A stretch of 64,000 bases of DNA, taken from a virus. The notes beneath the pieces are model-generated. The model did no database searches. It had not been told where the DNA came from and worked only from the letters and a program-made list of their open reading frames with translations. The stretch lies in the IMG/VR virus record IMGVR_UViG_3300017971_004694; one strand, written 5' to 3'. Below are positions 5,378 to 41,317 of the stretch, piece by piece (within the stretch, counting starts at the first letter, position 1; each line of letters starts with the position of its first letter). A program made the position numbers and the translations under genes.

Positions 5378-7924
5378 TTAGAACAGGCCCACCGAGATGT
5401 CGATGAAGATCCAGTTTACTGGGTAGTTAGGCTGCACTTCAACCACGATGTTCCATTGTCTTGGTTCCACCTCATCCCGACCAACGGAAAGGTTCCTATA
5501 AGCCGTGATGTAGTTCTGTGAAACGAAGGCGTTAAGCAATCCCAGAGCCCTTCAAGTAAGAGATGGAATAAGCGTTGGATCTTCGGGCTGGCCAATGAAC
5601 GCCTGGAAGCTACGACGCATCGTGCGAGCGATCTGGTCACGAATGAAGACAATCGACATTTCCTCTTCTTCCGGGAATCCGCTCTGCGTAGTAGTCTTAG
5701 CGTGTTGCACTCTTGCGCCGCCAGCGACTGGCTGAAGCACTGCAATACCAGCATCGCCTAGCTTGTTAAGTTGATTTTCTGTAAATAGTTTGTCATTAAG
5801 AATTGTAAAGCCTACAAGTGTCTTGTAGGTTAGTGGCATAGCTATGTTAGGCTCACCAGCAACTCTACCACCTGCGGCAGCAGCGATGTAATAACCAGGC
5901 AACGTAGTGCGTGAACCACTGATTACCTTGACAATTTCATCGGGATAGAAATACATTACCCTAAATGAATCTCCAAATGCATCAGCTACGCCGTAGTTTG
6001 CAAGGTCTTCAATGTTGGAATCCAAGATTTCCTCTGGATCATCTCCCTGAATCCCCTCAAGAATTCCAATATCCTCAGGCGCGGCAAGTTCGTTTCCAAG
6101 CACTTGCTCGACAGTTAGGGTTTCTAAAGATCCCGTAAACAACAGCCTCTCCCTTCTGTAATAGGTTGAAGACATGCGGTCTACGTGAACTCTAAATGCC
6201 TGTGTGATTGCAGAGAAAGTCTGTGCTGGAAGTGGAACAAGAATCTGTGCATCAACGGTTTCCAGAGTTTCCAACAATTCTGACCAATTGGCATCAAAGA
6301 AATCAGCATCTTCTACGTCGATGTAAGTAATTCTTAAGCCTCGTCCTGCTGCTAGAGCCAAGTCAGTCGTGAACAGAACTCTCTGTGAAGTGTCGCTTGG
6401 TGTGATAAGCTGCCATTTCAGATTGCTTTCCGTAGCAAAAGAACCTGCAGTTCTTTGAATCACTACAGTTGTGGTGTCCGTAACAGAAATAATATCGAAT
6501 CTTCCGGTGTTTGCCGCGAGCGCATTCACCAAGTCGATCTGTCTGTTGTTGGTTACATCTGCCTGAGTGAAGTTCCCAGACAAGCTAGTGAAAGTGGCTG
6601 TGGATCCGACTCCGATAGGAGCAAGAGCACCATCGGTAGAGGTCTGAATAATTCTATCGTCGGAAACTACCGTGTAGCTAAATGGATTACCACTTTGACC
6701 AGGATCCATGAACCGCGCCATTAGAAGCGTTGAGCTTCCCGTTTCCTCATAGTTCGAGAAAGCCGCTGTAATATCAGCGTCATAGAAAGTAACCTTGTTT
6801 GGGAAGATCTGATCTTCACTTCCGTCAGTGTTAATCATGAAGAAGTGAACTTCTGTATCTGTGTCTGGAAATCCAGGAGCCGTGATTGCGAAAATCAAAT
6901 CCTCCGCATTGGCATTACCAGTTGCCCCACCCTGGCCAGTAACACTATTAAGTGCTGGGAGAACAATTTCGGAGGTTCTCCTTGGGAGCGGAGGTTTGGC
7001 TTGCACAGCTAAAACTTCTGTTGCTCCATTCTCAAAGGCCATTTGGGCACCTAAGGATAAGGCATTATCCTCACTTGGATTTCCGTGTTTTTCAAATAGT
7101 TTCTGTGGATCGGTGAAAGTTTCGGGGTCATTGATGTCTAGAGTCGCAATGTAGCGAGCTTCTAGCTGATCTCCCACTTGTAAAACACGACTCTGTACTT
7201 GGATGGTGAATTTATCTCCAACATCAAATGGCTGGCCCGGAGCCGGGTTAAAAATAGCGAAGGAAATTATGCCGTTGCTTACGGCTGTGCCATCGCTTTT
7301 CCACAGATAGGGCTGGCCATATTCATCAAGAATTTGACCGCTTGTGGTTCCACTGACTGAGAAAGTGGCTTGGCCGCGTCTTGGAGCGCCGTAGCTGTCC
7401 CTGAGGACGCTAGAGCAGCGAACCGTCCAAGTTTCACCAGGGGCATTACTGTCTATTAGGGTTGGGGTGGAAAGATAACCATCACCAACATTAGTAGATG
7501 CCGCTGAATAGTACTGGCCTCCAAGGTCTACCAACGAAGCGCTTTGAAGCTCAATCTCTCCTGTGGTTGGATCAAGTTTAGCATCATACATGGTTGAGAA
7601 GCTCGATCCATCAATTGTTCCTTCAATGATTCTCAATTCAGCGCTGTTTAGAAGCAGAGTAGATCTATTTTCAACCAAGGGGTAGGTCGCAGTACGGAAG
7701 AACCGCCCGTAACCTTCGGTAGGCGTGGTGCTGAAAGTTGGATCAAACCCGTCAGTTCCATCACCAACGGCAGAATCAACAATCACTTCCTCACGTCTTC
7801 CTTCACCTTGTATGCTCAATATTCTAAGCCCGCCTGGGATAGAAACAGCACGAGTTAGAGTTCTCACTCTTGTTCTAACAGAAGGCTGAACATAGCCAAC
7901 AATTCCGGGGATATTAGGACTCAT
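5378..7924 (-). CDS. Contractile tail sheath protein, interrupted by an in-frame TGA at 5552-5554
   Basis: Start ATG 7924 (MSPNIPG) with GGAGG RBS; sheath features (LFEKHG.P...LSLGAQMAFENGA; MSIVFIRDQIARTMR); 57 more in-frame codons after the TGA (RALGLLNAF...VEVQPNYPVNWIFIDISVGLF) match the usual sheath C-terminus and fill the gap to the tube gene. Confidence 0.85.
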
Positions 7925-7971
7925 TATACAATCCTCCAAAGATATTATATATCCTTTCAGGAATATGTTTG

Positions 7972-7984
7972 ATTATTGATAGAT
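7972..7984 (-). promoter_or_regulatory. Late-promoter-like motif ATCTATCAATAAT upstream of the sheath gene
   Basis: One of 8 intergenic copies of consensus A(T/A/G)CTA(T/C)(C/T)AATA(A/T)(T/C), all oriented toward a minus-strand gene. Confidence 0.65.
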
Positions 7985-8072
7985 ATTGGAATATCAACCG
8001 CTTATGGTATATCGGGCAATAAAAGAATTGTTGTTTACTATCAATATAAATTCATTTTGTTGGAGGTGAAAG

Positions 8073-8573
8073 ATGCCGGTGTGTAAAAATTGTGATGAGA
8101 AATTTCCTAATAAAATCAAAGAGAATGGGCATACATACAGCCTGGCAGGCAGGAAGTTCTGCCCCAAATGTAGCCCAATAGGTGGTAGAAACACACGTAC
8201 TTACATAATTGAAGTTGAGGAGGGAAAGGCATTTTGTGCGCGATGCCAAGACATCAAGAGCATAAAGGAGTTCTATATCCGCAAAGAAAACGGCAAACCT
8301 TTCTCATACTGCCGAAAATGCCAAAAAGAAATTAAAGACTTGAAATTACAAGAGAAACTTGATAGAATAATAGAAGAAAGAAGCGGCGCGTGCTGCGATT
8401 GCGGCACCATGCTGCCTCCACCCATTTATGAGTTCTACAAAGATGGAAAGACATATCATATCAGTAGGGCGAAAAATATGTCTCTACAAAAGCTTAAGGA
8501 AGAATTAAGAGATCACTTGATGCTCTGTAAGAACTGTTGTGCGCTTAGAAAATGGGAATTAGGGAATGGGTAA
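8073..8573 (+). CDS. Zn-ribbon / HNH-endonuclease-like protein, probably degenerate; only convincing plus-strand gene
   Basis: GGAGG RBS; several CxxC pairs; C-terminus ELRDHLMLCKNCC mimics the HNH ELxKCxLLCANCH motif, but the catalytic His positions are not evident. Confidence 0.6.
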   Translation: MPVCKNCDEKFPNKIKENGHTYSLAGRKFCPKCSPIGGRNTRTYIIEVEEGKAFCARCQDIKSIKEFYIRKENGKPFSYCRKCQKEIKDLKLQEKLDRIIEERSGACCDCGTMLPPPIYEFYKDGKTYHISRAKNMSLQKLKEELRDHLMLCKNCCALRKWELGNG

Positions 8574-9341
8574 GGTAAGCACGCCATCCTCAAACATAAG
8601 AACCGTCACATCCGTAGAAAATCTTGTCCCACCCAACAAGCCGTAATTGAAACAGAAATTGATTGTATCCGCTATGGCATTTGCGTCTACTGGAATCTCA
8701 CGACGCCATTCGCTATATGTATCAACTGTGATGCTCTGTAGATAGACCTTTTCATTGCCCCAATCCTCTTCTCTTTCGCCACCCATACTCACTTTGTTGA
8801 TGTGCAAGCCTGCCTCGTAAAGTGGCTGGCGTGCTGCTCCAATAAGGAAAGAAGAGACAATATCGGTAAGTTCTTCTCTATCGGGCGTGCTTTCCGCAGC
8901 TATTTGAACCTCAAAGCTTTGATTCCAAGCGCCCGCTATAACCTTATGAGTGGGAACTCTTACGAAAGAACGATTCCCATAACCATCCAAAACCAGATCT
9001 AACCTATATTTGTTTGTGAAGTTTTGGTTGAAGCTCACAGGATTGTATGTTCCAGATGAATGGCGAACCGTGACTGCTGGCCAAAATCTCTTGTCCAGGC
9101 GATAGATGTCCCCGATATACATGCGTGTGGTGCATTCGTTCTGAATATCTGGAGGTAAATCGGTGACGTTGGGCGTAAGCGGAAAGCCAAAGCCGTCTGA
9201 TGTATAGCGATACAGCGTGTCCTGCTTGAAGTGCTCGCGCAAGACATCTATGAGCAGATTCTTACCCTGAGAAACTGCTACTTGCCTTACAAAGTCTTCA
9301 AGAGCAAATAAATCGCTATAGACGCGATGACTAGTTGCCAT
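8559..9341 (-). CDS. Putative tail terminator / tail completion protein
   Basis: 260 aa immediately upstream of the sheath; IAAESTPDREELTDIV pattern; synteny. Confidence 0.55.
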   Translation of the reverse strand: MATSHRVYSDLFALEDFVRQVAVSQGKNLLIDVLREHFKQDTLYRYTSDGFGFPLTPNVTDLPPDIQNECTTRMYIGDIYRLDKRFWPAVTVRHSSGTYNPVSFNQNFTNKYRLDLVLDGYGNRSFVRVPTHKVIAGAWNQSFEVQIAAESTPDREELTDIVSSFLIGAARQPLYEAGLHINKVSMGGEREEDWGNEKVYLQSITVDTYSEWRREIPVDANAIADTINFCFNYGLLGGTRFSTDVTVLMFEDGVLTLPIP

Positions 9342-9352
9342 TTAGGATCTCC

Positions 9353-9862: not shown

Positions 9863-9872
9863 TATTTCTCCT

Positions 9873-12800
9873 TTATAGGGTGTAGTTAACTCTTCCCTGC
9901 AAAACTGATATCGTATATGGGCCAGCAGTGTTTTGTGGCTCTAGTGATATGCCATGATGATCTTCGTATTGCATTATATTAGTTCCTGCCGGGCCGGCAG
10001 GTAATATCGTTTCATATTGATTGCCTGTGCCCTGTGCATTTTGTGCAGCCCTAAGGGTATAATAAGCTACCGATGGGCCAAATCCTCGCGACATGGACCA
10101 ACCTAGTTGAAAATCACCCACTACACCGACTAAGTTATACCATATTTCAACATTGTTGATAGTAGCTCCCACAGGGACAGTTTCTGTTCCAAAACTAAAA
10201 GCCAAAAGATTAAAGGTGCTGTCATATATAGTTTTGGTGGCTATCCATCCCCCACCAAACACCAACCAACTGCATGCACCGCCGTTAACGTCCATATCCA
10301 CAACAGCTGAATGTGTAGGAAAAACAACCGAATAAGTCTGCCCCTTGTTATTTATGTCCGTATTGCCAGTTCCAGTCAAGTTTATCATGGTGGTGGCGGA
10401 AACGAAAAAGTAATTGTGTGCTACAAGGCAATCCGCCGCTCCCACTCCATTAATAACACCATCGCCACTGAACGCAGCCGCTCCTCTAAACCAATTGTTA
10501 CATATTATGTGATTGCTGGTATCCGTTACTTCTAATATTGCTCCAATCGTAGCACCAGCGTTGTGCCTGAACACATTGTCACTTATGAGATATCCCCAAG
10601 CACCACCAGGACCAGATGCTGTAATATATACGATATCCTGTCCAGTATTGCCCTCACCAGTTACATAGTTGCCAGTGAAGATCACATTGCTCCCAGAACC
10701 TAGAGAGATATGATCCAGGCGTACCACATTTATATTCTCTGCTCCTTCAAAAAAGTTATCCGCAATCAATACATCATTAATGCCCCCACTAATTGATAAG
10801 CAAAAACGACCGTCACGAACAAAGTTGTTGGATATAATAGATTCATTTAGGCCCTGCGAGAAAAACATGCCGTGCGATGCAGCATTACCATAAAAGCCTG
10901 TAATAAGATTGCCAGAAATTAAAAAGTTGGTAGGCCCATCGTCAACCTGTATACCTGTCCCTATACCTTGGTCCGAGCCACCTGGATTCACCAGAGTATT
11001 ATTCGTTATCGTGAATCCATCATCTTGATTACCAGCATTTACCTCTGCACTAATCATTCTTCCATCAGCACCGGAAGTGTCTGTGCATTCTATATGATTT
11101 TTATCTATAGTTATTCTAGTTCCATCCTCAACTCTAATAAGTCTAGTTGCTGCCCCAGGAGCAGAGGATTTTAAAATGTAATTATTATGTATCAATACAT
11201 CAGTCGGGTCTGTTGTAAGCACGATGGCATTATCTGAAATGCCAGTCATGGTATTATCATTTATGGTTAAGTTAGTTACAGAAGTAATTGACACGACAGT
11301 TGGAGCATCAAAAATATTGCCACTTATTTCCATGTTTGTAACATTGTTAAGAACCACAGCGATATCAACCACTCCTGTGAAAGCAGAGTTTTTAACAACA
11401 GAATTGGCCACACTGTTGTCACAATAAATAGCGCGGCCAGGATTGGTAAACAAACAGTTAGAAATCTTTATAACGTTCACGTCATCAGCCGCAATTGCAA
11501 AATTGCTTGCATTCGGATTGTCGAAAACAAATCTACAGCGTTCTATGCGTATGCCAGTTATGTCACTACCCAAGCCACCGATGAAGGCGCCTGTTAAAGT
11601 TGTTGAACCGGTTTGAAAACCCAGGTCTCTAATAGTACAGCCGTTACCAGGAATTATGGTGCTGAAGGGAGTGCTATTGGTAACGTAAATAATTGAGTCT
11701 ATTAGACTGTCACCCTCAAGTGTTGTCCCAGCAGGCAGTATAATAGTGTCAGCTGAGGCGGTTATTTCAAGATCAATTGTTCCCCTAACGCGAATTCTCA
11801 TTGGAACTGGCAAATCGGCATAAGCATTGATATAATTTACGGCAGCTTGTAACGAGGCAAAAGAGCCATGAGTTATGTCATTTTCCTCAACGATCAGATC
11901 AATCTTGTTATCCAGCTTGTTGACAAATCTTCTCAAATCTCGTATAGCGTCCACAGTATTGCCAGCGTTAATATCCACCTGTGCTATGATAGTCTTGTCA
12001 TCACTGCTGAGAATTTCAGCAAGCGTAGGTGTGGTTAGAACACCAGACGCATAAAATCCGTCCTCAAGCATCTGAAACGCACCATCAGCATCCACGAACA
12101 CATTGTAGGTAACAGCAGCCCCGTTTTCTGGTATGGCTATGTTCTTACCACCTATAGAAAACACAGTGCCGTTTACCAGGATTTCACCGCCAGCGACACT
12201 AACCGTAGTAGTTCCGGCCACCCCAAAACCACGAATTATCCCGGCGCCGCGCAGCAAAGAGCGAGGGTATGTTATGTTGTCTCTAGTAAAGTCATCGCGC
12301 ACATCTTGCCTTCCCACATTTCCAAACAGACGCAAATCTTCCAGATGTTTGAAGCTGGTCGTATTGTGAAGCACGGTGCCCACCTGCACATATAGCTCCT
12401 CACTAATTCTATCGAATATTTCTAAATCGATGTAGTTTATGTTGTTAGTTCCAGGATCGGCCGCAACTTCTATTTCCACATAATCTATTCCATTTACATC
12501 GTATAGCTTGAACCTAAAACCTTCAGAGTCCGAACTGGGTATTGAAACGCTCACACCAGGATTTATTATAGTCGCGCCCGATCTGTCTCCCAGGGTCACA
12601 ACTCTACTTTCATACTGAATTCTCTTGTTGGGATTGGTTCTAAATGTTCTTGAGACGGCCACAATATCAAACCAGGATTCTGGATTGTTTGGCGTGCCCG
12701 CCGCATTTTGGTAGGTTAAACGTCTAGTTCCTCTCAATTGGCTGGTAACAAACTGATATCCATCCACAAACAGCTCATAAAGAGTGCGGTCGGTCGGAGT

Positions 12801-14495
12801 AGTGATGCCGAAGTAGTCAGCATATATGTCTATAGTTACATTCTCGTTGGTGCTAAAGTTATGTAGCACATTAAGGTTAGTGCTCAACACCTGGTCAAAT
12901 ATCCAGGTGCCGTCGTCAGCTGTTGAGTTTTTCACCCTTACAATTCCATTCTCTTTAATGCCCAAATCATCCAGATTTACAGCAGCAACGATTGTGTCAG
13001 AGCCATTTACTATTGCTCCCGTCGTGCTAACGATCTTTCTAACAGCAGCAATCTCATATCCATCGATATAAAATTTGCGCTCCTCAAGACTTTGTGCTAT
13101 TTCTCCTTCATTAAAGCCTAGTGCCTCCCAAGCTGTAGACCCTCCAGACGGAGCGAGAGCAGTCAGAGTCCCCTCAGGCTCGTCAAATGCCAGTCCCATC
13201 TCCCCTTTATAATGGAAAGCAATCAGCGGGCTGCCAGCAGTCGTAAAAGTATCGTTCAACACTTGCGTTAGATTTTCTGGAGTCCAATTGCTTGGGTTAG
13301 CTGAAAATGCTGTCATCGCTGCCAACACATCAATGTCTCCAGTATTTCCTGAGGCCCAACCAACTCTGATGTTCTGAACTCCAGCCGTTAAGGCTCGCAC
13401 ATCTAACCCACTACTTACAAGGAAAGGTGCAGCAGGTTGCACCAACTGAAGAACTTCGCCAGAAAAATCCGCTTTTTTAGTTGCAACTATAAGATTGGCC
13501 GGCTCGGATGTTTCTTCAGAAGTTCTGTATACAGCCGCAGTGCCAGTGCCGCTAGCTGGAGAAGGATTGATAGTATTAACTAATGTGTTTGAGATTACTT
13601 CATCAATGCGCAACTTATAGGTGTTTGAACCCAAAGTTACATCAATCACATCTCCCCTGGCAGCAATCGCCAAGTTGGCTTGTGCGGCGCTGAATGTTAC
13701 TCTGTTAACACCCTCCACCACTGTTGCGGCGGCAGAAGCAACAATACCAACATTGCGGTTGGTGCCAGGCAGAAAAGTTTCCTGTGTTCTTAGGATGCCA
13801 TTGCTGTGTTGTCTGTCTTGGTGCTGCACCAAAGCCCTTACGCCAAGCTCATCAAGCTCTTCAAAAGCAGTCTGGCCGTCGGTTGCATTAATGAATAGGA
13901 AGTTTGAATTATCAACAGAGATTGCACTGGCGTCGTGGGCGTCTGTAGGATCCGCAATGTGATCGTCAATTCTACCTCTTATGTCCGTCACAATCCCTTG
14001 GAGGTTTTGGGAAGCATATGGGGCCACATACCCATCAATATCACTGGTGTAGTGGCGCCCATATGTGCTTGGATGCGCAACATGCTGCGTTAGATTGTTT
14101 ATATCGACAGCGACTTTGTTCTCCAAAGAGATGATGCGGACTCGATTCTCATCAATCCAAGTTTTGAGCTGGACAGTGCTATAATCCAAGTCTAGCTTGG
14201 ACTCCTCTATTCCAGCAGTGGCAGCTATCATGCTATTGGTTATTGGCAATGCTACCAAACCGATAGTGGTGAGCGCCGAGGCTTTAATCGAGCCATCGGG
14301 GGCCAGCGACTGATCAAGTCGCGCAGCGACATCGGCAGCAGTTCCCTGCGGATCCAAACCAAGAGTTTCCTCAATCTGGAATACCGCACTGCGCAAGCCG
14401 TTTATAGCATCGCCGCCAATTTCCGTTATGTTGTCGTCAACTCGCGGTAGTTCTTTATCAGTGTCGAGTTCGCCAGGATATTTGCTATCAGGCAT
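9873..14495 (-). CDS. Large fibre / tailspike-like protein with a parallel beta-helix (pectin-lyase-like) region
   Basis: 1540 aa; C-terminal half has repeating I.I.NN.I/F beta-helix rungs; N-terminal YP..LD...N.LRSAV..IE.TLG motif shared with 15131..17470. Confidence 0.7.
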   Translation of the reverse strand: MPDSKYPGELDTDKELPRVDDNITEIGGDAINGLRSAVFQIEETLGLDPQGTAADVAARLDQSLAPDGSIKASALTTIGLVALPITNSMIAATAGIEESKLDLDYSTVQLKTWIDENRVRIISLENKVAVDINNLTQHVAHPSTYGRHYTSDIDGYVAPYASQNLQGIVTDIRGRIDDHIADPTDAHDASAISVDNSNFLFINATDGQTAFEELDELGVRALVQHQDRQHSNGILRTQETFLPGTNRNVGIVASAAATVVEGVNRVTFSAAQANLAIAARGDVIDVTLGSNTYKLRIDEVISNTLVNTINPSPASGTGTAAVYRTSEETSEPANLIVATKKADFSGEVLQLVQPAAPFLVSSGLDVRALTAGVQNIRVGWASGNTGDIDVLAAMTAFSANPSNWTPENLTQVLNDTFTTAGSPLIAFHYKGEMGLAFDEPEGTLTALAPSGGSTAWEALGFNEGEIAQSLEERKFYIDGYEIAAVRKIVSTTGAIVNGSDTIVAAVNLDDLGIKENGIVRVKNSTADDGTWIFDQVLSTNLNVLHNFSTNENVTIDIYADYFGITTPTDRTLYELFVDGYQFVTSQLRGTRRLTYQNAAGTPNNPESWFDIVAVSRTFRTNPNKRIQYESRVVTLGDRSGATIINPGVSVSIPSSDSEGFRFKLYDVNGIDYVEIEVAADPGTNNINYIDLEIFDRISEELYVQVGTVLHNTTSFKHLEDLRLFGNVGRQDVRDDFTRDNITYPRSLLRGAGIIRGFGVAGTTTVSVAGGEILVNGTVFSIGGKNIAIPENGAAVTYNVFVDADGAFQMLEDGFYASGVLTTPTLAEILSSDDKTIIAQVDINAGNTVDAIRDLRRFVNKLDNKIDLIVEENDITHGSFASLQAAVNYINAYADLPVPMRIRVRGTIDLEITASADTIILPAGTTLEGDSLIDSIIYVTNSTPFSTIIPGNGCTIRDLGFQTGSTTLTGAFIGGLGSDITGIRIERCRFVFDNPNASNFAIAADDVNVIKISNCLFTNPGRAIYCDNSVANSVVKNSAFTGVVDIAVVLNNVTNMEISGNIFDAPTVVSITSVTNLTINDNTMTGISDNAIVLTTDPTDVLIHNNYILKSSAPGAATRLIRVEDGTRITIDKNHIECTDTSGADGRMISAEVNAGNQDDGFTITNNTLVNPGGSDQGIGTGIQVDDGPTNFLISGNLITGFYGNAASHGMFFSQGLNESIISNNFVRDGRFCLSISGGINDVLIADNFFEGAENINVVRLDHISLGSGSNVIFTGNYVTGEGNTGQDIVYITASGPGGAWGYLISDNVFRHNAGATIGAILEVTDTSNHIICNNWFRGAAAFSGDGVINGVGAADCLVAHNYFFVSATTMINLTGTGNTDINNKGQTYSVVFPTHSAVVDMDVNGGACSWLVFGGGWIATKTIYDSTFNLLAFSFGTETVPVGATINNVEIWYNLVGVVGDFQLGWSMSRGFGPSVAYYTLRAAQNAQGTGNQYETILPAGPAGTNIMQYEDHHGISLEPQNTAGPYTISVLQGRVNYTL

Positions 14496-14513
14496 CTATT
14501 TGATCCTCCAAAG

Positions 14514-30665: not shown

Positions 30666-30699
30666 ATGCTTGTCTCCCAATTATCTATAATTATGGTCT

Positions 30700-30767: not shown

Positions 30768-30771
30768 AAAT

Positions 30772-31815: not shown

Positions 31816-31890
31816 ATTATTCTCCTTTCATTTTGGTCGTATGGATGCGGCAACATTCTAGTTAAAATGTAAAACAATTTTTGCTAATTT

Positions 31891-32769: not shown

Positions 32770-32797
32770 AATTAAAGTATCGTTGCATGTATATCAT

Positions 32798-32810
32798 ATT
32801 ATTAATAGCT
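32798..32810 (-). promoter_or_regulatory. Late-promoter-like motif AGCTATTAATAAT
   Basis: Directly after the MCP terminator and upstream of 32769. Confidence 0.6.
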
Positions 32811-32832
32811 CCACAAACTCCGGAGCCAAAAT

Positions 32833-32868
32833 AAAAAACGGGCTACCTATCAAAGATAGCCCGTTTTT
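32833..32868 (-). terminator. Rho-independent terminator after the major capsid gene
   Basis: AAAAAACGGGCTA...TAGCCCGTTTTT inverted repeat. Confidence 0.85.
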
Positions 32869-32891
32869 ATTAGGTTTTTAGCTACTGGGTA

Positions 32892-33929
32892 TTAGCCAAC
32901 GGCTACGGACTTGCGACCAACAGCGCAACCTCTTGGGTTGACGATGCCGATTCCGATGATCTCGGAAATAACCCAACCAAGCTTAAGCTGCTTTGGTTCG
33001 TCTGCTGGGAGCACCTCGATGTCCTGACGGACAGGCATAACACCAACAAACTCTGGGTCAGCCGTGCCGAACACGGTTCCGGCTGGGACGATCTTGGAAA
33101 CGATAATGTCGGCTCCCCAGATGTGGGCATAAAGACCAGTCTGAAGAATCTCTCTCATCGTAACAGGATCAACCTCGCCGCCACCAGTTCCCTGGCCACC
33201 ACCAGTTGCCCAATTCAGAATGTCATTGAACTCAATGATATTCATGAGGAACTTGGTAGTTACAAGGTCCCAGCGGTCAACCTGAACCTTGATCTCGGAG
33301 AGATCGCGCTTCAGGAGGCCAGCGTCCGCAATGTCCTGAGCGGTGTTCTCGCCGCCAAGAGTAGCGTCGGCTGCGAAATCCAAAGCTGCGAAGATGTTCG
33401 CATCCTCTTGAGCCTGGATTTCCTGACGAGCCTTTTGCTGCGCACGGTCGATGACGTTGAAACGACGCCTTCTGACTTCCGCGATACGAACGGTTGGGTT
33501 GGAAACAACCTCAAACTCTGGAACGGTCACACGGTCACCAAATACGCGGCTCTCTGGAGCCGAACCGTTGCTGGAAACAACAACAGCCGCGACATCAATA
33601 TCTCGGTCATACACAGGCAGAGCGCCCTGAGGAAGTGGGTCTACAACAAGAACTCTACGTCCAACACCCTGATAATCCAAGTTCCTACGGATTGGATTAG
33701 CCATGGCCTGGCCAAGAGCAATCTTGCCTTCCTGCGTCATAAGGGCACGCTTAATAAGCTCGTCTCTTTGCTGATCAGTAAAAGATGGATTCTGAGCTAG
33801 ACCGGTATTAGCTGGCTGAAGCTCCTCCAAGACACTAGCATACTTTACAATATTTGATAGGGCATCTTTAACAGAGCTAGCATTCTGTTCACCCTGGCTT
33901 CCATATGTGCTGAAAAGAGACATAAGCAT
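32892..33929 (-). CDS. Major capsid protein (HK97 fold) with N-terminal propeptide
   Basis: 345 aa; LGQAMANPIRRNLDYQGVGRRVLVVDPLPQGA, PEFEVVSNPTVRIAEV...FNVIDRAQQKA...EDANIF pattern; AGGAGG RBS, own promoter and terminator; codon usage typical of high expression. Confidence 0.85.
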   Translation of the reverse strand: MLMSLFSTYGSQGEQNASSVKDALSNIVKYASVLEELQPANTGLAQNPSFTDQQRDELIKRALMTQEGKIALGQAMANPIRRNLDYQGVGRRVLVVDPLPQGALPVYDRDIDVAAVVVSSNGSAPESRVFGDRVTVPEFEVVSNPTVRIAEVRRRRFNVIDRAQQKARQEIQAQEDANIFAALDFAADATLGGENTAQDIADAGLLKRDLSEIKVQVDRWDLVTTKFLMNIIEFNDILNWATGGGQGTGGGEVDPVTMREILQTGLYAHIWGADIIVSKIVPAGTVFGTADPEFVGVMPVRQDIEVLPADEPKQLKLGWVISEIIGIGIVNPRGCAVGRKSVAVG

Positions 33930-33980
33930 TGTCCTCCTTGTGTAGTTTAGATTTGACTTTCTCTTTCATTTCTATGCGTA

Positions 33981-33993
33981 ATTATTAGTAGAT
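33981..33993 (-). promoter_or_regulatory. Late-promoter-like motif ATCTACTAATAAT upstream of the MCP
   Basis: 52 nt upstream of ATG 33929. Confidence 0.7.
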
Positions 33994-34020
33994 TTTCTGG
34001 AAATATATTAGGCACTTATC

Positions 34021-35415
34021 TTATTCTTTAGCCTTTTTCTTCATGGCTTGACTAATAAGATGAAGTATCCTTTCTAACTTGCTGGGATCAATAACGATTT
34101 TACCCCCTCTTACCACCTTTCCTTTGAAGCTGCCTTTGCCTTTTATTCCAAGTTTATTAAGGGCTTCGTCTATGTTTTCCTCTAGTTTTGCCGCCGCTGC
34201 GACTGTTTTCATGTCCATTTCGCCCGTTACATCAACACCGAGTATTTCTTGTAGCTTTCTAGTATTATCTTCTGGTTTAATATCTGGGGTTTCCACGGCT
34301 CTACGAGCCACATAATCCATCTTCTTTCCTAGACCTTGTGCTTTTGCTATAAGAGCTTTGGTCTCCTCTATCACATCAACAAAATCTTCATACTTCTCAT
34401 CCAAGCGAGAAGCAATGTCGAACCCAAAATGATACCATCTTCCTGTCCCAAGCTCTATTTTTACTCTAGCCATCAGGGCTTGTAGTCTTGGGAATACTGT
34501 TTGTAGTTGATTAAAGTTCGCCACAAATTTTTTGAAGTTCTTTTCATCCAAAGGCTTTGCTAGTTTTCCCATGAACGGCTTCAATATGAGTGCAGCATCT
34601 CCCGCACTTTTCGAACCTTTGCCCTTGGCAGTTTGTAGAATATCGTGAAGGTCTTTAAGATCTGTTTTCAAATCTTCTTTGCGGCTCGTTATTTTGTTTC
34701 CAAAGGCACTAAGAAGAGTCATAGCTCCGCCAAGAGCCATAGCTCCTTTGCCCCATCTACCCATGGGTGCCTTACCTTTCATAGTTTTAGTTGTGGTTCT
34801 GCCACCAGTACCCTTTTTTCTTTCAGTCGTAGTAGTTTCACCACCACCCAAGTATTTGAAAGCCATGGGGGCGACCATTGAGACGAGCCCGATTACTGCA
34901 CCAATCCAGGCCGTCTTGTGAAGACGGCCATCAACGAAAGGGAGGTCAGCGATCCTCCTGATTGTCTTATCAACCCGGAGCGCTTCCTTAACCTTACCTT
35001 CTTCCTCAAGTTGATTTGCCTTCTTGGCCAGCTCTTTTACAAGCTCCGCATGAATACCAAAAAGAGCACCGCTAGGCATCCTAGTAGCAATCTCAATATC
35101 TTTTTTCTGTTGCTCCACTTGGTTCTCTACAACGCCACCGGCACCCATCGCATCAGCAAGCACTGCCGTCTCAGGATGAGCTTTTTCGATAAGCTCTTCG
35201 CCAGTTCCTTTAGTTACGTCGTATAGTCCAGCATCCTTCCTTTCCTTATCAGTCATACTTACGCCATTGTCTCGGAAAGGACCGACGGGCGATTCACTAG
35301 GATTGCCGACCAAATCTTTCTTTTTTGGATTGAGGTCGGTAGTAATCAAACCAGCGTCGGCAGCAATCTTTTCAAATTCCGCCATGACCGAACTGCCATT
35401 CCATTGTTTGCTCAT
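34021..35415 (-). CDS. Putative internal head / ejection protein
   Basis: Start MSKQWNGSSVMAEF after AAGGAG; LHKTA followed by a hydrophobic helix (WIGAVIGLVSMVAPMAF); degenerate PG-binding-like LQEILGVDVTGEMD. Confidence 0.6.
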   Translation of the reverse strand: MSKQWNGSSVMAEFEKIAADAGLITTDLNPKKKDLVGNPSESPVGPFRDNGVSMTDKERKDAGLYDVTKGTGEELIEKAHPETAVLADAMGAGGVVENQVEQQKKDIEIATRMPSGALFGIHAELVKELAKKANQLEEEGKVKEALRVDKTIRRIADLPFVDGRLHKTAWIGAVIGLVSMVAPMAFKYLGGGETTTTERKKGTGGRTTTKTMKGKAPMGRWGKGAMALGGAMTLLSAFGNKITSRKEDLKTDLKDLHDILQTAKGKGSKSAGDAALILKPFMGKLAKPLDEKNFKKFVANFNQLQTVFPRLQALMARVKIELGTGRWYHFGFDIASRLDEKYEDFVDVIEETKALIAKAQGLGKKMDYVARRAVETPDIKPEDNTRKLQEILGVDVTGEMDMKTVAAAAKLEENIDEALNKLGIKGKGSFKGKVVRGGKIVIDPSKLERILHLISQAMKKKAKE

Positions 35416-35419
35416 ATCA

Positions 35420-36490
35420 TTACGCTCCTTGTAAGAGTTCTTGTAGCTTCTTAGCCGGTGCGCCACCTTTTGGCTTTGGCATCGCCGTGGGTTTTGCGGC
35501 AGGAGCCGGCTCCCCTATCTTCTCGTATTTTGCTTCTGGTAGAAGCGAACTAGCTATTAATGTCACCGGAGGAATAAGAAAAGCTTGTTCCCTGTTCAAT
35601 CTCCGAAGTCTTTTGCCATTCAGTCTTTCTATAACCGAAAGTCTCCCCATCATCTCAGGGGAGCCTTTAAGTGGCCTTCTTTTCACCTGTCTGAAGGCTT
35701 GAGAGAAACCTTCTATGGTTGAATTAAGAAAGTGGATTAATGTGTCTTCAACATTTCCTTTCTCATTTACAATATAAAGATTCCCGGCACGCGCTGCACC
35801 AGGGACACCGCTGGGCTTTCTACCACTAAGAAGACCACTTATCGAGGGCCCTTCGCCAGGAGCAGCAGCCTCTGGAAGGCCAACTCCAAACTGCCTTTTA
35901 GCCAAACCACTAACAGCGCCAACAAGACCAAGACCAGCTAAGCCGCCAGCGAATAGTTTTAAAAGAGCATATAGGACATTAGTGAATCCCAATTTCTTTC
36001 CACCCTTAACGGCGCTGAGGAATTTCCTAAAATATCCACCCCTACCTATAGCTTGTTTCTCTATGGTTTCCGCTGGGAAATATTTGTTTGCACATGCAAT
36101 AGCAACCAAATCGTGCTCGTCCAACGTTCCCTTAATTTCAATCATATCTTCCAACATGCTGGTGGACTTGAGCCCTATTGCGCCTTTAACTTTATCCACA
36201 ACGCTTCCGGCAACATTTTTAAGACTACCCAAAGAAAGCGCTTGGCCTGGTTTCCAATTCAATTCGTCATCAACCAACCCACCAAGTTTTCCTGGTCCAA
36301 ATCCAACATACTCTGCAAGAAGAAGCAACAGTCCTATTTTCCAGCCGAAAATCTTCCAGCCAAGTATAGGGCCAATCGCTCCAAAGATCGTCTCAAATGG
36401 ATGATCCTTGAAATCTACTTTCTTAACTACCGTTCCCAGAAAATCTCGGATCATATCCTGACCTTCTTTGACGATAACTTTATCGGACAC
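35420..36490 (-). CDS. Putative internal head / ejection protein with membrane segments
   Basis: GTG start (VSDKVIVKEGQ) after GGAGG; two hydrophobic segments; IEKQA motif. Confidence 0.6.
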   Translation of the reverse strand: MSDKVIVKEGQDMIRDFLGTVVKKVDFKDHPFETIFGAIGPILGWKIFGWKIGLLLLLAEYVGFGPGKLGGLVDDELNWKPGQALSLGSLKNVAGSVVDKVKGAIGLKSTSMLEDMIEIKGTLDEHDLVAIACANKYFPAETIEKQAIGRGGYFRKFLSAVKGGKKLGFTNVLYALLKLFAGGLAGLGLVGAVSGLAKRQFGVGLPEAAAPGEGPSISGLLSGRKPSGVPGAARAGNLYIVNEKGNVEDTLIHFLNSTIEGFSQAFRQVKRRPLKGSPEMMGRLSVIERLNGKRLRRLNREQAFLIPPVTLIASSLLPEAKYEKIGEPAPAAKPTAMPKPKGGAPAKKLQELLQGA

Positions 36491-39400
36491 GATAGCCTCC
36501 AGGTGCTGGCGTTGGAGTTGTAGCCTTGGCCACAAGCTTTTCATGCAGCACTCTAAGATCGTTTAGATAATTTATAGCATCTGTCCGCATCTTGTTTACG
36601 AACGCCTTGGCCTCGCCTGATAGTGGCTGGGTTTTAAGGCTTTCCACTTGCCTTAAAATCTTTCCTACTTCGCCTCGCAATTGTCTTGCGTAACCTACTG
36701 GTGATTTACCACCAGAGAAAGCCTCGAAAGCACTTAGACTTTCTATAATTTCCCAATCTGGAAGCTTATCGAAATAGCTTTGCACACTATCTAGAGCAGC
36801 CTTTTCACGAGGTCTGCCACGCAGACCATAAAAAGCACCTCTATCTACCCCAGGCTTTCTGCCTCCAGCAGCAGGTGGGACCGCACCAGGTGCAGCTCCA
36901 GGAGCCCCAGGTCTCTCAGTTCCTGGAATTGGTTTAGCCGCAGGTGCTTTCCATCCACCAGCCAACTGGTTGTAAAGTTTCTGCATCATGCTTACAATCT
37001 GGTCAAATTTACCAGGGCTCTCCAAATCCATCATGGCCTTTTGAGGTTGAATAGCTCCATACATTTCCTGCAACAGCTTGGCTGGGACATCATCATGCTC
37101 GCTATCTGGGTCAAACAACTTCTGTAGTCGAAGCTCGGCAACAAAAGCCTGTGGGCTTTGTAGTGATTTCAAACTAACTTTCTTGCCCCTGAAGTCTATA
37201 TCGCCAGTAATAGCGGGAGCAGTCTTCTGTAGATATGCAGCTACTCTCTGTCCAAGATTGAGAACGTTTGCCGGCGGCTTTGCTGATGTAACAGTCGGAG
37301 TCTTAAACGCAGGCATGAGACCTTTGAGCTTGGCCATCATTTGATTATAAGCGCCGGCAGTATCTTTACCCCATGCTCCATCAACTCCATGTTTGCCCAC
37401 ATCAAAGCCAGCGGCAACCATAGCCCGCTGTAGAGCTTCAACCTGCGCATCTTTCGCCTTGGCTGGAGCCCTTCTCCTGCCTCTGTATTTGGTGGGTCTT
37501 TTGCCTTTCGCAGCCCGCTGCCTTTCTTTTAAGCGAGTAAGTAGGCTGCCCAAATCTGCAACTTTGACCAAACTGATGTTTTTCTTACCAGCAAGCTTCT
37601 TTAACACATTGTGATATAAATATTTATTTAGAAGCTTCATCTCATTTAAGCTTCTTTTGCGTGCCTTGAGCACAGCCAGCTCTTCCCTTAAGTTCTTTTT
37701 CCACTCCTCGGCGTCTTCTCCAAAAACCTTTGGGTTTGCATCTACTTTGGGAAGAATTTTGTTAATAGTCCCAACTAGAGCATTTTGAGCATTCTTAAAT
37801 TCTTTCTCGAACTTTTTATAAAGGTCTTCCCTTGGTGACACTTTTTCTTTCCCAGGCTCTTTTTTCTTCTCTAATTCTCTACTCAAAGGTCTTGTCGAAA
37901 TAAACATATCTAAATTATCAAATGCAGATGACCAAAGATCATATCCTTGGGCGCCCCAGCTTCCAGAATGTGGCTCTTCAGCAGACTCCGCATATTCGTA
38001 ATACTTTTTTATTTTTTGAAGAGTATTTTCAATCGTATTGGCAATTTTTAATAGCCTATCAAGCAATTTTTGATCCGCAGCGATTTCTTCAGCTTTTTGC
38101 ATATAACTAGCTATTCGCCTGTATGCACCCACTATAAACTCGTCGTATTCGGCATTTGGATCTTTATCGCCCCCAGGAAATGGATTAGAAATTAAAAATC
38201 CCTGTGGTTTTGCGGTAAAAGCGGTTTCTTCATCTGTTTGATCAGATACTGATCCTTCCATGGCTCTTAAACCGCTATTCATAGACTTAAGAATACTATA
38301 AAGTCTTCTTGCATCTTGAGCTTCCTTCTTAAGCGAGGCATCATTCTCCTCGGAGCCAGCCGCCTCGGAAGCTGAGCCCCTATTTACGAAAGGGTCTTCT
38401 CCTTCTAACAGTTTATCTCGCAATGAAGCAATTGTCTTATCTACAATCTGGGCTGCCTCAACATCGCCGTCTTCCTCCAGCAAATTAGCAGTTGCGACGA
38501 GCTTAGTCATCATCTCAGCATATTTGCCAGTAGGGTTCTTCAGCGCTTTTTCAACAACCTTCTTGTGCTCTTCAATAAGGGTCTCAACCTTTCCACCCTC
38601 TTCCTTTGCTGGAACGATGGTTGGTCCGCCGCCTGGGTGCGCCTGGTTAACAAGATCATCACCAGTCTCACCGGTCACATCATAAAGCTTATCGGCAGCT
38701 TCCTTGTAAAGAACAATCTGCTTGTCTACGGCAGTCGCGGCACCAGTCTCACCCATTTCCTCAAGGTCATTGGCCAGAGAAATGAGTTCGTTTATTGCTG
38801 AAGAGACAATAGCCATATCATCTGCTGCTGCCCATTCGGGGAGCTTAAGTTTTGTCTCTGGCTTTGGGCCTGGAGTCTTCTGCCATTTTTGGTGTATGGT
38901 TGGCCTTGCAACACCAATTGGTGGGCCACCACCTTTTTCTCTTTCTTCCATTTCTCTCATAGTTTTCCTCGCCATTTCCTCAACATCAAGGCCAGTCATA
39001 AGTTCTTTCATATCTAGTTTAGGCATAGTCTCTGACCAATGAGCATATGGATCAACCCATTTTGGAGTAATGGGTTTGAAGCCGGTCTCCTCAGATGGAA
39101 CTAATCCTGGTTTTGGCAACGGCTTTTCGGCAAACAGCCTTGGATATTTTGTTTTTGCGTATTCTAAAGCATCGCCTGGGTTCAGACCACGCAAATCCAT
39201 AAGTCTTTGAACTACTGTCTTTTGCTGCGGAGTAAGAGTCATAGCAGCCTCCTTGTTCACAAAATTGTCGTCTGCTGCCCCACCACGAGGCTTTGTAACA
39301 TCGCCGCCCACTTCGCGCATCTTCTTCTTTAGCTCATACTGACGGCGTTCACCAGCATCCATTTTGGCCCACTGTTCAGGGGTAGGCTCGTGACCGACAG

Positions 39401-40205
39401 CTTGCGGAACAGGCTTTGGCTTGGCAGCAGGCGGCGGGCCGGGCTTGGCAGCAGGTTTGGCAGCAGGTTTGGCAGCAGGTTTGGCAGCAGGTTTGGCAGC
39501 AGGTTTCCTTTTCGCAGTCTGCTGTTTTGCTGCATATGGCACCCACTTTTCAAGTAAATACTTCATATCTTCAGCTGAAGGAGCTTTTCTACCACGTATG
39601 GGTTTTAGACCAGCACTCTCTACTAAACTTGGATTCTTTTCCAAATAAGCATTCCAGGCCGCAGTAGAACGTCCACCCCAAGCTCCATCTGGATTACCTT
39701 TGTGAGGCCCCTTGGGATTGCTGGTTGCTATCCCAGTAGCCTTTTGTATAACAGATTGCACTTGTTTGATAAGCGGCGAGCTTTTCGGCTTTGCCCTGGT
39801 CCTACCCGCTCTACCCGATTCCGTCCCAGGCGTTACAAACTGAGGAGATTTAAGCCATGCTTGATAATCAGCTTTCCACTGTCCCATTACTGTTTCATTA
39901 GCCTTCTCTTCACTAATACCTGCACCCACCATTGTTTCGCGGGCAGCCCTATAAGCTTTATATTTTAGCTGGCCATCTGGATGGGTCCTAAGCCATTTAT
40001 TAAACTCTTCTCTGGCATCGGGCGTATCCTTCATAGATCCCCCTTCCTCTTCTGGCGCTGTAGCACCAGCGGGACCACCAGTTTCCCAACTCCAAGGCAC
40101 ACCCTTTCCTCCTTGAGATTCTTTTACGATCCAGCCCTTCTCAAGAGCCATTTTTGCAAATTCGTCCATTACGGAGCCGCCTAAAAGGTTATCGATTTTA
40201 ACCAT
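36480..40205 (-). CDS. Large internal head protein with two peptidoglycan-binding-like domains
   Basis: 1241 aa; VQSVIQ...NPDGAWGGRSTAA and VEALQRAM...GVDGAWGKDTA; K-x-A sites (IVKES, VNKEA, LKKEA, LVKVA); AAKP repeats. Confidence 0.65.
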   Translation of the reverse strand: MVKIDNLLGGSVMDEFAKMALEKGWIVKESQGGKGVPWSWETGGPAGATAPEEEGGSMKDTPDAREEFNKWLRTHPDGQLKYKAYRAARETMVGAGISEEKANETVMGQWKADYQAWLKSPQFVTPGTESGRAGRTRAKPKSSPLIKQVQSVIQKATGIATSNPKGPHKGNPDGAWGGRSTAAWNAYLEKNPSLVESAGLKPIRGRKAPSAEDMKYLLEKWVPYAAKQQTAKRKPAAKPAAKPAAKPAAKPAAKPGPPPAAKPKPVPQAVGHEPTPEQWAKMDAGERRQYELKKKMREVGGDVTKPRGGAADDNFVNKEAAMTLTPQQKTVVQRLMDLRGLNPGDALEYAKTKYPRLFAEKPLPKPGLVPSEETGFKPITPKWVDPYAHWSETMPKLDMKELMTGLDVEEMARKTMREMEEREKGGGPPIGVARPTIHQKWQKTPGPKPETKLKLPEWAAADDMAIVSSAINELISLANDLEEMGETGAATAVDKQIVLYKEAADKLYDVTGETGDDLVNQAHPGGGPTIVPAKEEGGKVETLIEEHKKVVEKALKNPTGKYAEMMTKLVATANLLEEDGDVEAAQIVDKTIASLRDKLLEGEDPFVNRGSASEAAGSEENDASLKKEAQDARRLYSILKSMNSGLRAMEGSVSDQTDEETAFTAKPQGFLISNPFPGGDKDPNAEYDEFIVGAYRRIASYMQKAEEIAADQKLLDRLLKIANTIENTLQKIKKYYEYAESAEEPHSGSWGAQGYDLWSSAFDNLDMFISTRPLSRELEKKKEPGKEKVSPREDLYKKFEKEFKNAQNALVGTINKILPKVDANPKVFGEDAEEWKKNLREELAVLKARKRSLNEMKLLNKYLYHNVLKKLAGKKNISLVKVADLGSLLTRLKERQRAAKGKRPTKYRGRRRAPAKAKDAQVEALQRAMVAAGFDVGKHGVDGAWGKDTAGAYNQMMAKLKGLMPAFKTPTVTSAKPPANVLNLGQRVAAYLQKTAPAITGDIDFRGKKVSLKSLQSPQAFVAELRLQKLFDPDSEHDDVPAKLLQEMYGAIQPQKAMMDLESPGKFDQIVSMMQKLYNQLAGGWKAPAAKPIPGTERPGAPGAAPGAVPPAAGGRKPGVDRGAFYGLRGRPREKAALDSVQSYFDKLPDWEIIESLSAFEAFSGGKSPVGYARQLRGEVGKILRQVESLKTQPLSGEAKAFVNKMRTDAINYLNDLRVLHEKLVAKATTPTPAPGGYRVR
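39442..39506 (-). repeat. 12-nt tandem repeat (GGTTTGGCAGCA on the plus strand, about 5 copies) encoding PAAK
   Basis: Directly visible in the sequence. Confidence 0.9.
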
Positions 40206-40594
40206 TATTCTCCCTCCTTGAATAGATCTTCAAGCTCGTGTAGGGCCATCTCAACCCTGTAAGCTGCCTTCACGTTCTTGCCATCTGCGAGTTCATTGGC
40301 GATCTTCTCAAGATTCTCAATAAGCATCTTGTCGTAAGCTGTCTTAAGCTCTGCCACCAAGGTTGGCTTTTCAAACTGCTCTAGAGCCTCATCGAACCTT
40401 TTCATAGGTTCCTCTTCCTCCCAGAACTTTTCCTCTTCCTCTTTAGTTACCTTTGCCTCTTTCTCAAGAGGAAGGGGCTCAAAAGCCTCGGGAGGTGGGC
40501 CCTCAAGGACATTATCCTTTTGGGCAACCTTCTCAAGCTCCTTCATAACCTCGCTGTCGAGCCAAGCAGCTTTATCTTCTTTTGAGAAACTCAT
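40205..40594 (-). CDS. Small internal head protein
   Basis: 129 aa; SEVMKELEKVA, LEKEA and the helical LEKIANEL motif shared with neighbouring genes. Confidence 0.65.
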   Translation of the reverse strand: MSFSKEDKAAWLDSEVMKELEKVAQKDNVLEGPPPEAFEPLPLEKEAKVTKEEEEKFWEEEEPMKRFDEALEQFEKPTLVAELKTAYDKMLIENLEKIANELADGKNVKAAYRVEMALHELEDLFKEGE

Positions 40595-40615
40595 AGACGC
40601 CTCCGCGTAAAATAT

Positions 40616-41317
40616 TTACAGCCACATAAACTCAAGCGTGTTAACTATAGCACTGGGTGGCCCGGTGACTATCGCTACGCCTGGATGTGTCTCTGTTAAT
40701 TGACTTGTCGTAAGTTGTCCCGTTGCGTTGACGAACAATGTAGCGTTCACCGGGTATCTCTGTAATGTATCATACTGATCCGTCGCAAAAATACCACGCT
40801 GAAACCAAATCGTCGCCCTATTGCTTCCAATGGTCGAATCATCACCAGGAAGCGATGGGACCTGATAAACATAATTCACTACTGTTCTTACACTATCGTT
40901 TTTTCCATTCCCAGTGCTATCATAATTTAGCCTACTATCCTTGGGCAAGGTCAAAATTCCATTAACAGGATTGAGAATCAAACCCTCATAGTCGGCCACG
41001 AAACTGCTTTGTATCAAACCACCATTAGCTAGTGGTGCAGTGAAATCCACGCTGTTGAAAAAATTGTATCCATCGGTGTAGATCAAACTTGGATCGGGAG
41101 CCGATAGAAGCACGATTTCATCAACCACGGGCATCGTGAAAGCATTAGTTCTTACATCATCAATAATTCCAAGTGGCGCAGTTCCGTCAGATAAGCCCAA
41201 AACTATATCCTGGCCAACCAGTTTAAGCTGACCTATGGCCCCTGGCTGAAACGAAGCCGAGGGGTCAACTGGATATGAGAACGGCAGGGCGTTGCCCGTT
41301 TGAATAAGTCTTAACAT
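40616..41317 (-). CDS. Second putative capsid decoration protein
   Basis: 233 aa; FQPGAIGQL...DGTAPLGIIDD...TIWFQRGIFATDQYD resembles beta-tulip decoration proteins; GGAGG RBS. Confidence 0.5.
   Translation of the reverse strand: MLRLIQTGNALPFSYPVDPSASFQPGAIGQLKLVGQDIVLGLSDGTAPLGIIDDVRTNAFTMPVVDEIVLLSAPDPSLIYTDGYNFFNSVDFTAPLANGGLIQSSFVADYEGLILNPVNGILTLPKDSRLNYDSTGNGKNDSVRTVVNYVYQVPSLPGDDSTIGSNRATIWFQRGIFATDQYDTLQRYPVNATLFVNATGQLTTSQLTETHPGVAIVTGPPSAIVNTLEFMWL

Follow-up and report, generated by a model that had tools for sequence, protein, structure and literature searches.

Background

In mycobacteriophages, virions are glycosylated by phage-encoded glycosyltransferases (GTs) on the C-terminal parts of capsid and tail-tube subunits (Freeman et al. 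2023, Cell Host Microbe, PMC10527164, as cited in PMC12619734). Here we describe a tripeptide, Asp-Gly-Tyr (DGY), that recurs in the tail proteins encoded by a 64,000-nucleotide stretch of viral DNA (IMG/VR record IMGVR_UViG_3300017971_004694; the whole stretch is referred to below as the window). The phage is uncultured, with a genome of ~450 kb, and the proteins of the window are found on a contig of 452,631 bp, which makes it a huge phage. DGY is a real, clade-specific and positively maintained linear motif, enriched ~12-19-fold above chance in the proteins that make up the tail exterior, the baseplate and the fibres throughout its clade. We tentatively suggest that it may be a sequon for tyrosine O-glycosylation, written by a block of GT genes of the same clade, a reading that we consider quite possible and would stop short of calling probable.

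As far as the mycobacteriophage system is outlined in the citing source, the likeness lies in a soluble GT cluster of the phage's own near the structural genes, and in virion surface proteins as the (here proposed) targets. The mycobacteriophage targets reported there are the C-termini of capsid and tail-tube proteins, whereas in the window the major capsid protein (MCP) and both tube paralogues are devoid of DGY, and the candidate acceptor would be a tyrosine within a strict tripeptide that lies in tight turns of the outer tail proteins and is known from sequence alone.

Short acceptor motifs are well established in bacterial protein glycosylation, such as D/E-X-N-X-S/T for Campylobacter PglB and D-(S/T)-(A/I/L/V/M/T) for O-glycosylation in Bacteroidota. 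Like DGY, these sequons are short, linear and enriched on surface proteins, with an indispensable acidic residue that precedes the acceptor (in DGY, the presumed acceptor) by one or two positions; the partial replacement of D by E at some DGY sites (EGY) is a parallel to the D/E of the PglB sequon. Both bacterial systems employ periplasmic oligosaccharyltransferases and lipid-linked glycans, whereas the GTs considered here look soluble and cytoplasmic and the acceptor would be tyrosine.

Tyrosine O-glycosylation has been described on bacterial S-layer proteins (Paenibacillus alvei SpaA, Thermoanaerobacter; PMC2943079). As in the present proposal, the glycans are carried by tyrosines of surface-array proteins, although at few sites per protein and by means of a membrane O-oligosaccharyltransferase (O-OTase). 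We know of no DGY context for S-layer tyrosine glycosylation. Serine-rich-repeat (SRR) adhesins are glycosylated in the cytoplasm, with initiation by the GT4 enzymes GtfA/GtfB and extension by GT2/GT8 enzymes, and EarP rhamnosylates EF-P at the tip of a beta-hairpin. The SRR pathway resembles our proposal in being a multi-GT cytoplasmic route towards many short repeated sites on a fibre-like surface protein, and EarP offers a precedent for an enzyme reading a hairpin tip; the acceptors in these systems are Ser/Thr or Arg, not Tyr, and sequence kinship is at the level of GT families only. No DGY motif was found to be described in phage proteins in the searchable literature, and to our knowledge phage biology does not at present include short linear motifs that mark an entire class of virion proteins.

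DGY enrichment in outer tail proteins

DGY was counted in a non-overlapping set of open reading frames (ORFs), with the tail block defined as positions 5552-31485 (8275 amino acids, aa). The block contains 35 copies against 1.84 expected from the composition of each protein (Poisson p = 3e-32), and 5000 within-protein shuffles produced a mean of 1.8 and a maximum of 9. A first-order (dipeptide) expectation derived from DG and GY counts was 6.7, even though these counts contain the motif itself. DGY was the most enriched of all tripeptides in the block, its P being over 25 orders of magnitude below any other; DAY came next (11 vs 1.5), and the other five orderings of the same residues occurred 0-2 times each. 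Among related tripeptides, DGF was seen 7 times (2.3 expected), and NGY (1 vs 1.4), EGY (1 vs 1.2), DGW and the rest were at expectation, with a similar picture in relatives. Thirteen per cent of all tail-block tyrosines sit within DGY.

The head block (31576..63860, minus strand; MCP at 32892-33929, a protease-like protein, a giant 3135-aa protein and others) holds just 2 DGY in 10.6 kaa, compared with 1.2 expected by composition and 44.9 at the tail-block rate. Inner tail genes (112..5363, minus strand; tube initiator and tape measure, both with weak Pfam matches, and two tube paralogues) provided a negative contrast, having no DGY where 7.3 would be expected at the tail-block rate (P = 7e-4). 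The excess over chance claimed in the first-pass annotation of this DNA hence survives all composition controls; its attribution to external virion proteins holds for the outer tail proteins, and is too broad in that the capsid surface proteins carry none, making the signal tail-specific.

The carriers, all on the minus strand and named here by their first coordinate, include a 672-aa structural protein (17483..19501; seven DGY vs 0.20 expected, at residues 43, 94, 184, 351, 354, 362 and 366; DAY at 100 and 238), a 518-aa fibre-like protein (22206..23762; seven, at 26, 35, 131, 141, 250, 342 and 383; DSY169, DAY292), a 294-aa protein with the densest DGY content (27946..28830; six, at 22, 44, 86, 99, 187 and 217; DAY180) and a 446-aa protein (26606..27946; four, at 22, 52, 222 and 264; DAY at 12, 84, 114 and 149). 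Fewer copies are present in a 1540-aa beta-helix fibre/spike protein (9873..14495; Pfam Beta_helix, E = 1e-10; DGY154, 478 and 578), a 779-aa beta-helix-like protein (15131..17470; DGY9 and 403, DAY299) and a 104-aa protein (30366..30680; DGY18 and 85). Single copies were found in the 795-aa tail sheath (5552..7939; PHROG tail sheath, E = 8e-18 over residues 405-784; DGY153, DSY181, DEY205), a 260-aa tail protein (8559..9341; DGY119), a 95-aa protein (21476..21763; DGY28), a 213-aa protein (30844..31485; DGY53, DAY20) and a 233-aa protein within the head/neck block (40616..41317; DGY82). This gives a total of 36, with one more at residue 2658 of the giant ORF (52783-62190, minus strand; VIDGYHR) and none in the MCP, in exact agreement with the per-gene counts given earlier. 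Near-variants reported at the same time were also recovered (DSYG and DEYG in the sheath, DAYG elsewhere), whereas a 'ParB-like' label for the IDGYHR context was not confirmed, the segment around this DGY having no Pfam match. In the 26606 protein, residues ~75-165 form three tandem ~30-aa repeats of the type TQQTLATEATLxDAYNKLDSLEAKDFA, with one DAY per repeat.

Every synonymous codon is used in DGY, and of 38 coding-strand matches to GAYGGNTAY, 37 are in frame, with none on the opposite strand; mixed codons and an empty opposite strand place the signal in the protein rather than in the DNA. The carriers, previously called unrelated, indeed showed no mutual similarity detectable by BLAST, except for the first 60 residues of the 9873 and 15131 proteins. 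Residues flanking the motif displayed strand-like preferences only (beta-branched or hydrophobic before the motif, Leu at +1 and +3). It is extremely improbable, in our judgement, that the DGY excess arose artefactually, whether from composition, from codon bias, from a DNA motif or from paralogous domains present in several copies. Repeats do account for some occurrences, namely the DAY repeats of the 26606 protein, 56-aa repeats in a protein of a related locus (L018, see below) and, in phage G, the modules DGYWYVRG and VDGYLVKxGGN. Against this, per-protein composition, shuffles and first-order expectation are all insufficient to account for the counts, codons are mixed, the opposite strand is empty, and the carriers are neither paralogous nor conserved in their flanks. 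Composition or dipeptide bias (35 vs 1.84 and vs 6.7), a DNA-level motif and paralogy among the window carriers were accordingly ruled out.

Conservation of the motif across orthologues

The family of the 22206 protein comprised 47 orthologues, 46-79% identical, with 4-8 DGY each against 0.23 expected. Little or no variation was seen at sites 26, 131, 141 and 383. DGY alternates with EGY at sites 35 and 250 and with DAY at site 383, and ten more columns have sporadic DGY. Conservation of D, G and Y in the motif was 0.81, 0.95 and 0.88, compared with 0.57, 0.76 and 0.52 for the same residues elsewhere in the protein (Mann-Whitney p = 1e-4), and the immediate flanks scored 0.45-0.69. Being above both its flanks and the same residues elsewhere, the tripeptide forms an island of conservation.

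The hydroxyl group of the tyrosine appears to be part of what is conserved. Phe occupied 6 of 360 Tyr-or-Phe cells (1.7%) at motif tyrosines and 92 of 723 (12.7%) at other Tyr-majority columns of the same alignments in three families (odds ratio 0.12, Fisher p = 3e-11; cells not phylogenetically independent), an effect that was large in the 22206 family and in the sheath. Aromatic packing alone would tolerate Phe, and the alignments indicate that the tyrosine hydroxyl is needed at DGY.

In the 27946 family, site 22 is a variable short turn (NA/DA/GA/DGT) in DGY-free homologues and DGY in 27 of 36 carriers, while site 44 is D-x-[V/A/T] in DGY-free members and D-x-Y in carriers. Sites 86 and 99 are within an insertion almost confined to carriers. 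At site 217 nearly all members have GAY and the window protein alone has DGY, an ancestral tyrosine having gained D-G there. The presence of other residues at the aligned positions of DGY-free homologues shows the motif to be dispensable for the fold.

A tandem run, DGYDGYAYGYTDGYADGY, occupies residues 351-368 of the 17483 protein (18398..18451, minus strand). Orthologues have a run at the corresponding position, but the number of units and the spacers differ (DGYDGYANTDGY in L004, DGYRDGYDGYSPRDGYDGY in L020). Adjacent units cannot all form hairpin turns, and such runs therefore behave as a linear motif. Together with the island of conservation and the lineage-specific occurrence described below, they uphold the earlier view of DGY as a selected linear tag.

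Structural placement of DGY sites

AlphaFold2 models of the 22206 and 27946 proteins had predicted local distance difference test (pLDDT) scores of 75 and 74, at which placement was read at the level of turns and strands, not of side chains. Mapping DGY onto such models, as had been suggested before, gave a turn or pre-strand position at five confidently modelled sites: sites 131 and 141 of the 22206 protein, like 44 and 99 of the 27946 protein, occupy tight turns that link two strands, while site 217 of the latter comes just before a strand. At these sites D-G lies ahead of the strand and Tyr at or beside its start; the remaining sites are in coil or low-confidence regions. No solved structure related to the carriers was found, either by sequence or by fold.

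In 15 sheath orthologues, all ten D[GASE]Y columns are located at residues 75-216 or 436-461 and none in the C-terminal core (500-795), with DGY at site 153 in 11 of 15. In tail sheaths the C-terminal core lies on the inside, and it is the inserted domains that are turned to the exterior. DGY is found on outward-facing parts of the tail, that is fibres, baseplate periphery and outer sheath domains.

Two-residue Asp-Gly/Asn-Gly beta-hairpin turns (type I') resemble the situation at the four tight-turn sites, with the fifth just before a strand. A pure turn preference would, however, enrich NGY and DGF/DGW and occur in homologues, and none of these was seen. An Asx-Gly turn required by the fold was rejected on the basis of homologues without DGY, NGY at 1 vs 1.4 and exclusion of Phe. 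Asp-Gly isoaspartate formation and a calcium-binding turn, both raised in the first-pass annotation, found no support: NGY is not enriched, and the tyrosine hydroxyl is not a usual calcium ligand.

A function intrinsic to the D-G-Y turn, with no writer involved, is doubtful, albeit deserving of serious attention. The turn could be a minimal ligand dyad (Asp carboxylate plus Tyr hydroxyl and ring) making many weak contacts with a host polysaccharide or a metal ion, or could form an inter-subunit Asp-Tyr hydrogen-bond clamp that steadies fibre beta-structures. Such a role would suit the invariance of several sites across 47 orthologues, conservation above that of the flanks and a location at hairpin junctions where both strands contribute hydrophobic or aromatic neighbours; the need for a hydroxyl fits hydrogen bonding or coordination too, and a tail-specific rather than virion-wide distribution is as expected for host contact. 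However, homologues from other lineages fold and presumably work without DGY, and the motif arose at many non-homologous places in unrelated proteins (sheath, 95-104-aa proteins), which is hard to reconcile with a clamp that depends on geometry. Nor can every unit of a tandem run be a hairpin turn, and we know of no lectin or metal site as small as DGY.

Distribution of DGY among huge phages

Neither the sheath nor the fibre protein had a relative among cultured phages. A sheath search retrieved 16 IMG/VR loci with 42-72% identity, all with an approximately tenfold DGY excess, and an unrelated phage contig showed none. On the contigs of three large relatives, the coding-strand pattern matched 90, 50 and 47 times, compared with 3 matches each on the opposite strand and 1-14 for the reversed pattern.

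The C-terminal ~110-aa module of the 27946 protein is widespread among huge phages, and its family of 120 homologues was bimodal, with 73 members lacking DGY and 36 having at least two. Across 80 IMG/VR loci, the DGY count in the family protein correlated with the ratio of observed to expected DGY in neighbouring genes (Spearman 0.77, p = 3e-12), a test that is free of circularity. Pooled DGY-positive loci contained 293 DGY against 24.3 expected over 151 kaa (12-fold), far ahead of other tripeptides, while pooled DGY-poor loci, with homologous tail proteins from other huge phages, contained 17 against 25.8. In the DGY-poor loci (among L030-L109), DGT and DGS were the top tripeptides in the same tail region (~2.2-fold), and D-G plus a hydroxyl residue may be a general feature of such tail proteins, which the present clade may have tuned; this speaks for the intrinsic function discussed above.

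A nearby MCP of the phage-G type was detectable by BLAST at 25 loci; every one of these was DGY-positive, they formed one clade together with the window, and the trait apparently had one origin. No member of the clade is in culture. Bacillus phage G, which is cultured, has an MCP 52% identical and is a distant sister of the clade. Its fibre block showed a modest excess (14 vs 2.2), 9 of the 14 copies being in two repeated motifs and DGY ranking fourth among tripeptides. No clear DGY excess was seen in LR745208, Tunturi_5 or Rctr197k. The outer tail and fibre proteins of T4 contained 4 DGY vs 2.0 expected in 9.3 kaa; this, together with the DGY-poor huge phages (17 vs 26), ruled out a generic property of tail fibres.

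One DGY-positive locus encodes a 739-aa protein with 15 DGY (L018:3214-5433, plus strand; genome G001), several of them within ~56-aa repeats NYGxVxQITxDGYLDxFESVPGV. The gene is followed by three tandem ~350-aa paralogues with common DGY at ~10, ~54 and ~80, two of which also have one at 69.

An unlikely alternative is that DGY serves as a docking or assembly tag, the exposed turn being bound by some protein peculiar to the clade, for instance a chaperone of the fibres, an adaptor for attachment or a small decoration protein. Switching on and off at the level of lineages, in unrelated proteins of one structure, fits a single shared reader; eight carriers have DGY in their first 55 residues, and small unannotated ORFs lie between the fibre genes. 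On the other hand, no protein emerged as a candidate reader, the bias towards N-termini is weak (11 of 35 tail-block DGY in the first 55 residues, which represent about a fifth of the sequence), and seven sites per 500-aa protein plus tandem runs exceed what docking needs.

Glycosyltransferase genes next to DGY-rich genes

Candidate partner genes were sought by comparing 15 DGY-positive with 14 DGY-poor large contigs, the trait having been confirmed on whole records (23-101 matches vs 1-31 for the reversed-pattern control in the positives; control level in the DGY-poor). GT2 domains scored above the Pfam cut-off in 12 of 15 positives and 0 of 14 negatives, where the three positives without GT2 were 26-40% complete and seven of the negatives were complete genomes. 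GT1 domains at E <= 0.001 were present in 10 of 15 positives (7 above cut-off) and in none of the 14 negatives.

The clade-specific genes form a single block of at least five glycosyltransferases; that of G004 consists of GT4, three GT2 and Glyco_trans_1_2, and a GT10-like gene was seen in G003. In 6 of 6 genomes, the block starts no more than two genes from, and on the same strand as, an orthologous 892-1338-aa protein with 5-10 DGY, being directly adjacent in three and separated by one short ORF (70-236 aa) in the other three. The 13 block proteins of G004 had no clear transmembrane helix (maximum 19-aa hydropathy 1.58), unlike the membrane O-OTase of the S-layer system, and all are small GT-A/GT-B enzymes. 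Nearest solved relatives of the GT4 protein were generic (PglA, BshA, TarM).

In G004, the DGY-rich protein encoded beside the GT block (L122:3071-5749, plus strand; 892 aa, 10 DGY) contains a calcium-binding segment of the dockerin/EF-hand-like kind (PF00404, E = 1e-8), and the gene preceding it encodes a Laminin_G_3 lectin-like domain.

A 758-aa double GT (P0196), a full-length orthologue of the G002 double GT with 56% identity, is encoded on a 452,631-bp contig, equal in length to the one carrying the window proteins; by this indirect evidence the GT block is probably present in the window's phage too. About 15 orthologues of the clade's double GT (homologues of L125:5130-7418) are enlarged to ~1150-1210 aa and contain intein/homing-endonuclease domains (PF14528, PF14890).

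Weighing co-occurrence and alternative modifications

The 508-aa protein encoded at 48224-49750 (minus strand), within a block of head and internal proteins, has a protein tyrosine phosphatase (PTP)-like domain (PF03162, 29 bits vs a cut-off of 27), as well as weak DSP-PTPase toxin-type and PG_binding_1 matches. A different cycle of tyrosine modification (phosphorylation or nucleotidylation), possibly involving this phosphatase, seems to us very unlikely. PF03162 is found in 13 of 15 DGY-positive and, weakly, 1 of 14 DGY-poor contigs, the window protein passes the Pfam cut-off, and the tyrosine hydroxyl appears essential. Yet no kinase or transferase partner was found, and sulfotransferase and Fic families did not co-vary with the trait. 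The position of the gene amid head and internal proteins makes an ejected effector more likely, and the 48224-49750 protein may be such an effector; the PFA-DSP/Y_phosphatase2 family includes enzymes acting on non-protein phosphates. Phage G lacks both the GT block and, at threshold, the PTP-like phosphatase, and is therefore unable to separate the two as partners.

Under the glycosylation reading, an exposed D-G-Y turn would be recognised in the infected-cell cytoplasm by the soluble GT block (GT4, several GT2 and Glyco_trans_1_2), which would assemble a glycan O-linked to the hydroxyl of the tyrosine. Recognition or activation would fall to the acidic residue at -2, as in the D/E-X-N-X-S/T sequon, and the outcome would be a sugar-coated tail surface. 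We infer that the block acts on proteins, that tyrosine is the acceptor and that the glycan has such a purpose. The full statement, namely that a clade of ~400-500-kb phages marks its tail exterior with a D-G-Y tyrosine sequon read by a dedicated phage GT block, is possible and is put forward with somewhat greater caution than the sequon itself. Enzymatic tyrosine modification, as proposed in the first-pass annotation, gains circumstantial support from the indispensable hydroxyl and from a clade-specific GT block syntenic with DGY-rich genes; the PTP-like phosphatase co-varies with the trait equally well.

Several observations weigh against glycosylation by the GT block. Co-occurrence of GTs with DGY is perfect among adequately complete contigs, but with a single origin of the trait any clade-specific gene will co-vary, as the PTP-like gene does just as well, and co-occurrence cannot name the writer. 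The GT block is favoured over other clade-specific genes only by its conserved place beside DGY-rich genes and by precedent. No glycosyltransferase is encoded within the window, and those of the clade are of generic GT4/GT2 type, the solved enzymes nearest to them having lipids, teichoic acids or small molecules as substrates. The block could instead serve DNA hypermodification or the synthesis of another glycan, and phage GTs may also hypermodify DNA in the account cited in PMC12619734 (Pyle et al. 2024). Many DGY sites are invariant over 46-79% identity, which also fits a site-specific structural or binding role, and the capsid surface is without DGY, contrary to the mycobacteriophage precedent. 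The models that place the sites are of moderate confidence, and the tyrosine modification is a proposal drawn from sequence data.

Other features of the window

Genes of the window are almost all on the minus strand, and in the order of transcription the head block is followed by ~25 kb coding for fibres, baseplate and unidentified tail proteins, the sheath, two tube paralogues, a tape-measure-like gene and the tube initiator. The MCP (32892-33929) matches phrog_2522 (E = 3e-76). The adjoining paralogues at the tail-tube position (4074-4709 and 4737-5363, minus strand) are 51% identical over their full length. Two head-block proteins encoded on the minus strand (34021-35466, 481 aa; 36480-40205, 1241 aa) have a common ~100-aa segment with 41% identity, and the larger one also shows a weak endolysin-PHROG match at residues 891-955. 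An ATP-dependent DNA ligase (62229-63206, minus strand; PF01068, E = 3e-32) is located directly upstream of the giant head-block ORF. In the tail block, a 192-aa protein without DGY (19519-20097, minus strand) has weak eCIS_core and SprT-like matches and a possible zinc-metallopeptidase-like motif.

Conclusions

Bacillus phage G, related and cultured, with weak repeat-driven DGY and no GT block, is a natural comparator for the clade. Should DGY prove to be an intrinsic adhesive or clamp motif, it would represent a new minimal structural element. If it is a tyrosine sequon, no glycosylation code directed at tyrosine would have been described for a virus before, nor any phage sequon that can be recognised from genome sequence alone. 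It would then constitute a new enzyme-substrate code with candidate enzymes in hand, offer a sequence-readable map of sugar-coated tail surfaces in the largest known phages, and open a way to study the shielding or tuning of tails in huge phages.

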